From contig DATDSO010000004.1 in assembly GCA_035291225.1 (NCBI GenBank), positions 490,765 to 554,764 of the forward strand: a stretch of 64,000 nt of DNA. The letters are read 5' to 3'. A model generated the notes under the pieces. That model did no database searches. It had not been told where the DNA came from and saw nothing but the letters and a program-made list of their open reading frames with translations. This document shows positions 13,757 to 41,487 of this stretch, in pieces. Origin of the DNA: an archaeon (GTDB lineage Archaea; Aenigmatarchaeota; Aenigmatarchaeia; Aenigmatarchaeales; JACQIB01). The translations under genes were made by a program, and so were the position numbers. The stretch's first letter is position 1. Every line of letters begins with the position of its first letter.

Positions 13757-13977
13757 GGGCCCTTAGCATAGCCTGGATTTTTTGGAAAGGCAAATAGTGC
13801 GGCTGGCTTCGGCGCAGGGTGCAAACTTCGTTTACACCCCGCACCCCTATTATGGGATGCGATGAAACCAGCAGATCGGGGGTTCAAATGAAATGTCGCG
13901 AAGCGATAATTTCGGGAGAATAAACCCTTAAGGAGGGCGGAGCCCTTCTTGGGGTGAAATTCCCTCAGGGCTCACCA
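13757..13977 (+). tRNA. tRNA-Arg (anticodon UCG) with three introns: D-loop (13778-13794), anticodon 37/38 (13813-13866), T-loop 60/61 (13890-13961); CCA encoded
   Basis: Exons assemble to GGGCCCT-TA-GCAT-AGCCTGGA..TA-GTGC-G-GCTGG-CTTCGG..A-CCAGC-AGATC-GGGGG-TTCAAAT..CCCTC-AGGGCTC-A-CCA with all stems base-paired. TATA CAAATTTAAATCC at 13723-13735 (about -27). Confidence 0.6.
13813..13866 (+). ncRNA. Conserved about 55-nt element, copy 1 (identical with the 37/38 intron of tRNA-Arg)
   Basis: CGCAGGGTGCAAACTTCGTTTACACCCCGCACCCCTATTATGGGATGCGATGAAA. About 80% identical to copy 2. Internal hairpin GGGTGCAAAC-TTCG-TTTACACCC. Confidence 0.5.
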
Positions 13978-40070: not shown

Positions 40071-40604
40071 ATGGAAGAAGATGTTGCCACACCAGTCAGC
40101 GAACAGGTTTACGAGAGGCCGGGTGATTTCTCCTTCGGAGGCTCTTATGAAGTTTTAGATGCTGGAGACGGAATAACTCATGTAAAACCGGAAGCAGAAC
40201 TTTCTGATGGAAGGCAGGATTATGATATTGTAGATCAAAACGGCAACAGGCTTTTCTGGTTTTTTGTTGAGGAAGTTATACCAAAGACCATCGTAAGAGG
40301 TCCGACTTCGCTGCAAATCCATGAAAGAAATTTTAATGAATATATTTTTAGTATGCTCAAAGGGTATACTTATTGCGAAAAGCCTGCGAGGAGAATTACC
40401 AAGAAATACAGATTTGACAGCAAGGAGATTGATGATGCTTTGAGAGTGGGGGCGTGTTGCATGGATCTGCATATTGAAATAGATGGGGCTGAACAAGAAA
40501 GATTGGAACGGGGAATTGAAGTGCAAGTTGTGAAAGATTTGAACGGAAATGAACTTGTTAGATTCGTGGGAAATCCTGCGCCTTACAAGCATGAAACTAA
40601 ATAA
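40071..40604 (+). CDS. Hypothetical protein
   Basis: 177 aa. Confidence 0.5.
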   Translation: MEEDVATPVSEQVYERPGDFSFGGSYEVLDAGDGITHVKPEAELSDGRQDYDIVDQNGNRLFWFFVEEVIPKTIVRGPTSLQIHERNFNEYIFSMLKGYTYCEKPARRITKKYRFDSKEIDDALRVGACCMDLHIEIDGAEQERLERGIEVQVVKDLNGNELVRFVGNPAPYKHETK

Positions 40605-40712
40605 GTTATTTGAGAGCGCAGGAAAGGCAGGCTAAAAAAATCCTAAAAGGTTGTGGAAAAAATTGGCTCAGAAATCTTAAGTATTTAAAATCTTCTTCCT
40701 AACTGCAATCAC

Positions 40713-40861
40713 AGCGGGATGGGGCAGCCTGGAGTGCCCGTCGGGCTCATAACCCGAAGGTCCTCAGTTCAAATCCCAAGCCTTTTTCTCGAAAAAGGCT
40801 AGGGCTTATCCAAAAAGGAAAATTGCAATATTAGGATAAAAAAATCTGAGTCCCGCTACCA
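40713..40861 (+). tRNA. Initiator-type tRNA-Met (CAU) with a 71-nt intron between T-loop and 3' T-stem (40775-40845); CCA encoded
   Basis: AGCGGGA-TG-GGGC-AGCCTGGAGT-GCCC-G-TCGGG-CTCATAA-CCCGA-AGGTC-CTCAG-TTCAAAT-[intron]-CTGAG-TCCCGCT-A-CCA. A1-U72 pair and three G-C pairs in the anticodon stem (initiator hallmarks). TATA TATTTAAAATC at 40682-40692. Confidence 0.8.
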
Positions 40862-40899
40862 AATTAAATCTTTTTATCCTCCCGAAACATATATTTTCT

Positions 40900-41487
40900 A
40901 TGCCAATTGTTTCTGAAGAGCACGGCAATTATCTTTTGAGAGTCAGCCGCGTTGCGATTCAAAATTATATTCAGCACAACAGAAAAATCGCAAAGCCTGT
41001 AAATACACCTCCTGAATTAGAATTGTCAGCGGGAATTTTTTTGAATCTTTACAAAAAAGTTCCAATTGCGGAATCTGGCGAATTAAGGGGGAGCGCTGGG
41101 ATTCCTTTTGCGCAAAAAGATTTGATAGAAGCTGTGATAGAATCTTCTGTCGATGCGGCCGCGCATTCGAAATTTTCTCCAGTAACAATGCAGGAAATGC
41201 CTGTGGTAAAAATTGAGCTGCATATTCTGAACGAGCCGCAGCTTCTCCAATACAAAAATGATGTTGACTTTTTTGGAAAAATAAAAATTGGTACACATGG
41301 ATTTCTTTTGAATAAGGCTGGAAAAACCGGAATAATGCTTCCCTCAGTTCCGCTAAAGAAAAAATGGAGCGCGCGCGAGGCTTTGGATAATTTGTGCGTT
41401 GACTATGGGTTAAAGCCCGAAAGTTGGAAGGATCCGTCCGCGCGCGTTTGGATTTTTTCCACGCAGGTTTTCAGGGATAAGAATTAA
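40900..41487 (+). CDS. AMMECR1-domain protein
   Basis: About 195 aa with an LRGSAG variant of the LRGCIG motif. Confidence 0.65.
   Translation: MPIVSEEHGNYLLRVSRVAIQNYIQHNRKIAKPVNTPPELELSAGIFLNLYKKVPIAESGELRGSAGIPFAQKDLIEAVIESSVDAAAHSKFSPVTMQEMPVVKIELHILNEPQLLQYKNDVDFFGKIKIGTHGFLLNKAGKTGIMLPSVPLKKKWSAREALDNLCVDYGLKPESWKDPSARVWIFSTQVFRDKN

Follow-up and report, generated by a model that had tools for sequence, protein, structure and literature searches.

An archaeal initiator tRNA-Met gene with a probable 71-nt T-loop intron of a genus-restricted family and a degraded splice motif

Is a tRNA gene whose T-loop is broken by 71 additional nucleotides the initiator tRNA-Met gene of its organism, and where and by which enzymes would the insert be removed? 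The question is raised by positions 40713-40861 of the window, the whole stretch of 64,000 nt analysed here, which comes from a small groundwater archaeon. Read directly, the sequence contains every element of an initiator tRNA-Met gene, whose T-loop is interrupted by 71 nt. The acceptor stem is formed by AGCGGGA (40713-40719) and TCCCGCT (40851-40857), the D stem by GGGC and GCCC, and the anticodon arm by the 7-nt loop CTCATAA with the anticodon CAU, enclosed by the 5-bp stem TCGGG/CCCGA; the T stem pairs CTCAG (40763-40767) with CTGAG (40846-40850) around the T-loop TTCAAAT, and the 3' end consists of A73 and an encoded CCA (40858-40861). Archaeal and eukaryotic initiators carry A1 paired with U72 and, in the lower part of the anticodon stem, three G:C pairs in a row, and both marks are present, with A 40713 opposite T 40857 and GGG/CCC in the anticodon stem. 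When the insert was deleted in silico, ARAGORN called a tRNA-Met(cat) of 78 bases, which folds as a cloverleaf (-32.9 kcal/mol) with all four stems perfectly paired; at minimum energy, the 149-nt precursor also folds as a cloverleaf, and its T-loop then holds two hairpins. The sequence-only reading of an initiator tRNA-Met gene with a 71-nt T-arm insert is thus confirmed in identity and in insert length. On the + strand, the gene is flanked by the frames 40071-40604 and 40900-41487, which are 295 nt apart; the latter, 3' of the gene, encodes an AMMECR1-family protein. Its features, with a slash marking a cut, are as follows:

40682..40690, + strand: TATA-like box TATTTAAAA, a putative archaeal promoter that precedes the tRNA 5' end by 23-31 nt
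40713..40773, + strand: exon 1, tRNAi-Met positions 1-59 (acceptor 5' strand, D arm, anticodon arm, variable loop, T-stem 5' strand and TTCAAA)
40774..40844, + strand: 71-nt T-loop intron, a member of a repeated family, with borders placed by the 59/60 rule
40775..40804, + strand: hairpin P1, CCC-A-AGCCTTTTT, loop CTCG, AAAAAGGCT-A-GGG, the helix after the 5' splice bulge in the minimum-energy fold
40806..40839, + strand: intron region 2 with predicted hairpin P2, TTATCC and GGATAA enclosing AAAAGG in the minimum-energy fold
40839..40845, + strand: degenerate 3' splice box, AAAA followed by AA/T, where the other 32 copies have NGAA (or CGGA)
40845..40861, + strand: exon 2 (T60, CTGAG, TCCCGCT, A73 and the encoded CCA)

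Standard tools pass over this gene: ARAGORN in default mode found no tRNA in the unspliced window and Rfam at gathering scores no family, and a relaxed threshold gave a tRNA model match of 21 bits (E 0.15) to 40713-40787, that is, to the 5' part and the start of the insert. The empty results are a limit of the tools and not evidence against the initiator gene. Even with its intron option, ARAGORN reported no more than 15 tRNA genes for the entire assembly (885 kb, 92.8% complete). A scan of CCA-ending genes for a paired acceptor stem and T stem led to 39 plausible tRNA genes, of which 22 carry an insert in the T-loop, among them the tRNA-Arg at 13757-13977, and the other 17 have a plain T-loop of 7 nt; repeated use of the site by this organism, already proposed from the sequence, is therefore borne out. 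ARAGORN called 18 of 22 spliced genes, some of them as 'Stop' or 'SeC', and its isotypes for the other multi-intron genes were unreliable and not used. As an uninterrupted tRNAi-Met elsewhere would have spoken against the sequence-only reading, pattern searches of the assembly were run on the anticodon arm and on both ends of the gene, and no second initiator turned up in its 885 kb; one might lie in the missing part of the 92.8%-complete assembly.

Homologues were collected by BLAST over 41 genomes, the organism's own and 40 from relatives that share its genus, family or order. The exon part was matched in 33 of the 41, own genome included, and the insert only in the own genome and in G001, a genome of the same genus, with no match at E 0.001 or better in the 39 others. 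A full initiator gene could be extracted from 23 of 30 loci, including that of the window, and all 22 genes from relatives show A1:U72 and GGG/CCC. Four of these 22 are uninterrupted, with an identical T-loop TTCAAAT and compensatory stem changes; 16 are interrupted at other places, which by eye are the D-loop, anticodon loop or variable region; and in two (L051 and L053) the T-loop holds a short insert whose motif is perfect: TTCA pairs with TGAA, 3-nt bulges (AA/N and AT/T) lie on each side and an inner hairpin follows. The G001 orthologue (L058:231-439) has a similar upstream flank, TATAAAAT followed by a similar spacer, and contains three inserts compared to one in the window gene: in the D-loop, near 32/33 and in the T-loop, the last being homologous to the window's intron and at the same site. 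Since the exons match the initiator genes of relatives and the own genome holds 17 further copies of the insert, a chance origin is ruled out. Among the relatives, the initiator gene of G030, a genome of the same order (L040:254-615), has an anticodon-loop insert of about 284 nt with an 89-aa open frame (L040:304-570), which matched no Pfam family and may be an intron-encoded protein.

Alignment of the T-loop inserts of the genome showed that 16 of the 22, including that of the initiator, align over their full length of about 70 nt. A profile built from these 16 detected 18 strong copies in the genome (nhmmer, E 7e-13 or better), with the initiator intron matching at E 5.4e-17; in BLAST, the latter is 98% identical over query 54-114 to another copy of the same genome. 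Seventeen of the 18 strong copies are located at 59/60 and one in a D-loop, so that the family is not confined to 59/60; one strong copy bears a further insertion. The tRNA with the D-loop copy (G000:C4:169583-169735, nhmmer E 3.1e-13) has an uninterrupted T-loop. Near-identical introns across tRNA identities, more than one position, and presence or absence between close relatives point to the initiator intron as a member of a copied ('transposed') family. A consensus fold of 28 copies (RNAalifold) gave 12 predicted pairs for P1, five of them with compensatory changes, and the hairpin of AGCCTTTTT and AAAAAGGCT that had been read from the single sequence can be regarded as real; P2 is unsupported by the same consensus. 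The motif AAAAGG in the second intron half (window 40810-40818) is invariant in the 28 aligned copies, although the prediction leaves it single-stranded; being a repeat of the P1 3' strand, it could alternatively pair with the P1 5' strand. No C/D-box motifs could be seen by eye in the initiator intron, and a relaxed Rfam scan of it gave chance-level matches only.

Comparison of the two genomes of the genus points to a quick turnover of the family. Twelve family introns were extracted from G001, nine of which have counterparts in the window genome with an identical 12-base 3' end: four of these counterparts carry a family intron, two an unrelated T-loop intron and three no T-loop intron. In the two with unrelated introns (tRNA-Arg at 13757-13977 and G000:C4:605562-605722), the G001 counterparts have family introns, and one intron seems to have replaced the other at a single site. 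In all six orthologous pairs the intron is closer to a paralogue of its own genome than to its orthologue, and the initiator intron is 85% identical to its paralogue C10:122405 compared to 61% for the G001 orthologue. Such a similarity of paralogues over orthologues fits copying or conversion between intron copies, and copying of introns is proposed for Thermoproteales in the available text of PMC4090602.

Regarding the enzymes, the genome encodes two EndA paralogues, 1.2 kb apart and each with the N-terminal and catalytic Pfam domains (PF02778 and PF01974), and an RtcB ligase (E 5e-172), which together support protein splicing. The alpha-like EndA (G000:C4:22505-23050; L060:1264-1806) can be aligned to EndA of M. 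jannaschii and to the alpha subunit of N. equitans; both the Tyr and the His are conserved, and the 7-residue lysine-rich insert between them matches that of N. equitans alpha (PDB 3IEY). The second paralogue is without the His, as expected for a structural beta subunit, which it would represent. In addition, the alpha-like EndA has an Ala at the first K of the 'RKK' of M. jannaschii EndA, which we take to be the catalytic Lys156. Among 80 related loci (L096-L175), 77 match the motif; none of the 77 has this Lys, and 74 have a 13-16-residue lysine-rich loop (KPLKRGPK-like) between Tyr and His, a lysine of which may have taken over the role of the missing one. Of the relatives of the alpha subunit in public genomes, 45 of 80 are labelled Candidatus Aenigmatarchaeota and most others 'uncultured archaeon'. 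As far as the available texts go, endonucleases of the alpha-beta and epsilon types cut relaxed motifs and the 'L3' loop is common in DPANN (PMC5829648), and the ARMAN-2 endonuclease cleaves a relaxed 59/60 intron in vitro (PMC3239211); by analogy, EndA of the window organism would be of broad specificity.

Splice motifs were compared among 33 T-loop introns of the two genomes. Because MAFFT shifted the T-stem end registers, the splice-box pairs were counted by script from anchored ends, with the T stem as the outer helix and positions 54-57 facing bases -7 to -4, followed by the 3-nt bulge. Five introns can form four pairs, 27 form three, and one, that of the initiator, only two. The pairs T54-A, T55-A and C56-G beside the 3-nt bulges are kept in 32 of the 33, and the initiator intron alone has no G (-6) to pair with C56, so that TTCA faces AAAA. 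The predicted probability of the three-pair helix is at least 0.35 in 27 of the 33 copies and 0.00 in the initiator, and five other copies are also low. Most of the 33 are predicted to adopt a shape like a bulge-helix-bulge. For the folding into such a motif that the sequence-only reading named as a check, a distinction must be made: the strict hBHBh' form, with two 3-nt bulges and a 4-bp helix between them, is absent from the initiator copy, which can form two of the four central pairs, and the relaxed form is present, with AA/T before P1, AA/T before CTGAG and both flanking helices intact. The strand opposite the 5' bulge bears about 35 extra nt, even in the family consensus, and the motif is therefore relaxed (a three-way junction) and not strict. 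Each predicted cut falls in an unpaired stretch one nt 5' of a helix, either the T stem or P1. In this modelling, the initiator motif is the weakest of the 33 compared. Both its degraded state and the membership of the insert in a repeated family had escaped the sequence-only reading. Contigs of two metagenome runs from different studies reproduced 40733-40804 and 40797-40980 without differences; an error of this one assembly thus does not account for the odd box. The metagenome contigs showed no DNA form of the gene without the intron, and among 20 sequencing runs listed for the sequence none was of RNA. Many loose contig ends at 40762-40778 represent initiator tRNAs of other organisms in the metagenomes, and a contig (X5; depth 4.66, side 30) joining 40775 to 40948 was left out of account, as it probably stems from another organism or was joined by the assembler across the repeated intron.

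We consider it probable that 40713-40861 is the functional initiator gene of this uncultured DPANN archaeon, the 71-nt intron of a genus-restricted family being excised at 59/60 by EndA and the exons being joined by RtcB. Transcription, cleavage and ligation of this copy, with its degraded central helix, are what we infer from its sequence and fold: the gene would be transcribed as a precursor of about 149 nt, the splicing endonuclease would cut one nt 5' of P1 (AA/T) and one nt 5' of the T-stem 3' strand (AA/T), and RtcB would join the exons to the 78-nt tRNA with the T-loop TTCAAAT. The intron family of about 70 nt, restricted to the genus, would have spread among T-loops with quick turnover.

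The missing G might also be explained by a recent disabling of the gene, its loss blocking excision and a working gene being located in the unassembled part of the genome. The lone absence of a C56 partner among 33 introns, the central-helix probability of 0.00 and the room that a 92.8%-complete assembly leaves for another initiator gene all speak for this explanation, which we nevertheless regard as improbable, as the exon stems are all intact, the promoter-like flank is conserved with the same-genus orthologue, and nothing else in 885 kb resembles the 5' end, anticodon arm or 3' end of an initiator. Moreover, the T stem and P1, the helices that position both cuts, are intact, a low helix probability is also found in five other family or neighbour copies, and enzymes of this class cut relaxed motifs, as described in the accessible portions of PMC3239211 and PMC5829648.

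For the functional gene, the exact cut site is the next point, since five deletion registers (56/57 to 60/61) led to the same 78-nt product, namely deletions of 40771-40841, 40772-40842, 40773-40843, 40774-40844 and 40775-40845. This ambiguity is due to AAAT, which is repeated at both borders of the insert, and with one mature tRNA from all five registers the initiator gene alone cannot decide between them by sequence. The orthologues can: for three tRNAs of G001 that carry a family intron and have intron-less orthologues in the window genome, only a cut at 59/60 reproduces the T-loop of the orthologue (three of three), and cuts at 58/59 and 60/61 predict a wrong T-loop in the same three pairs. 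By homology the initiator intron is therefore 40774-40844, and a 3-4-3 geometry in which the T stem is taken for the outer helix likewise places both cuts at 59/60. The sequence-only reading had thus located the insert correctly in the T-loop and erred by one position in placing it at 60/61; a true cut there (intron 40775-40845) or in another of the equivalent registers appears very improbable, and in the initiator gene the product would be the same. That the insert is retained, giving a mature tRNA with an expanded T-loop and two extra hairpins, can practically be dismissed, as the T-loop must contact the D-loop, three sister-genome tRNAs with the family insert have plain 7-nt T-loops here, which shows the insert to be dispensable for the tRNA, and splicing enzymes are encoded in the genome.

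Beyond excision at 59/60 by EndA, a more specific version can be envisaged, which we offer as speculation and think rather unlikely to hold in full: a currently mobile, structured T-loop intron restricted to one Aenigmatarchaeota genus might be excised without a central helix, the alpha EndA, with no usual active-site lysine and with a lysine-rich loop, being positioned by the T stem and the conserved fold of the intron.

T-loop introns at 59/60, multi-intron tRNA genes and copied intron families are already in print, and we found no paper on tRNA introns in Aenigmatarchaeota in a literature search that was incomplete for subscription journals and supplements. The closest case, judged from the available text of PMC3239211, is the 59/60 intron of ARMAN-2, also a DPANN archaeon, with a relaxed motif (hBH or bulge-helix-loop) in the T-loop that is missed by standard finders; its motif is cleaved in vitro by a broad-specificity endonuclease. 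As far as that text describes it, the ARMAN-2 intron has 13 nt compared to 71 nt with two hairpins here, and its enzyme is a three-unit epsilon2 type in contrast to separate alpha- and beta-like paralogues; the window gene furthermore encodes an initiator tRNA and has a weaker central helix. Very similar introns across tRNA identities in one genome are also described for Thermoproteales, at canonical and non-canonical sites and interpreted there as gain by copying (PMC4090602; bioRxiv 10.64898/2026.10.13.758758; both as far as available). The present family differs in that it occurs in DPANN and not TACK, with 17 of 18 copies at one site and in one genus of the 41 genomes searched. Finally, the initiator tRNA-Met gene of Thermofilum pendens shares a disruption of the T arm that needs the splicing endonuclease, but according to its description (Chan et al. 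2011, as cited in the available text of PMC4090602) it is circularly permuted with termini in the T arm, unlike the collinear window gene with its simple intron. The points of interest of the window gene are modest: it is the sole initiator in the assembly and the only family copy without a C56 partner.

For annotation, a standard procedure would list this organism as being without an initiator tRNA, and once the T-loop intron family is recognised, the initiator and some twenty further tRNA genes are regained, so that estimates of the tRNA complement of DPANN archaea and of the completeness of their genomes are corrected. The quick turnover of the family between two species of one genus provides a natural data set on gain and loss of protein-spliced introns. 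The initiator copy with its degraded splice box represents a simple natural test of how little bulge-helix-bulge a DPANN endonuclease needs; if excision without the helix were true, an essential initiator gene with a lost helix would be its natural proof.
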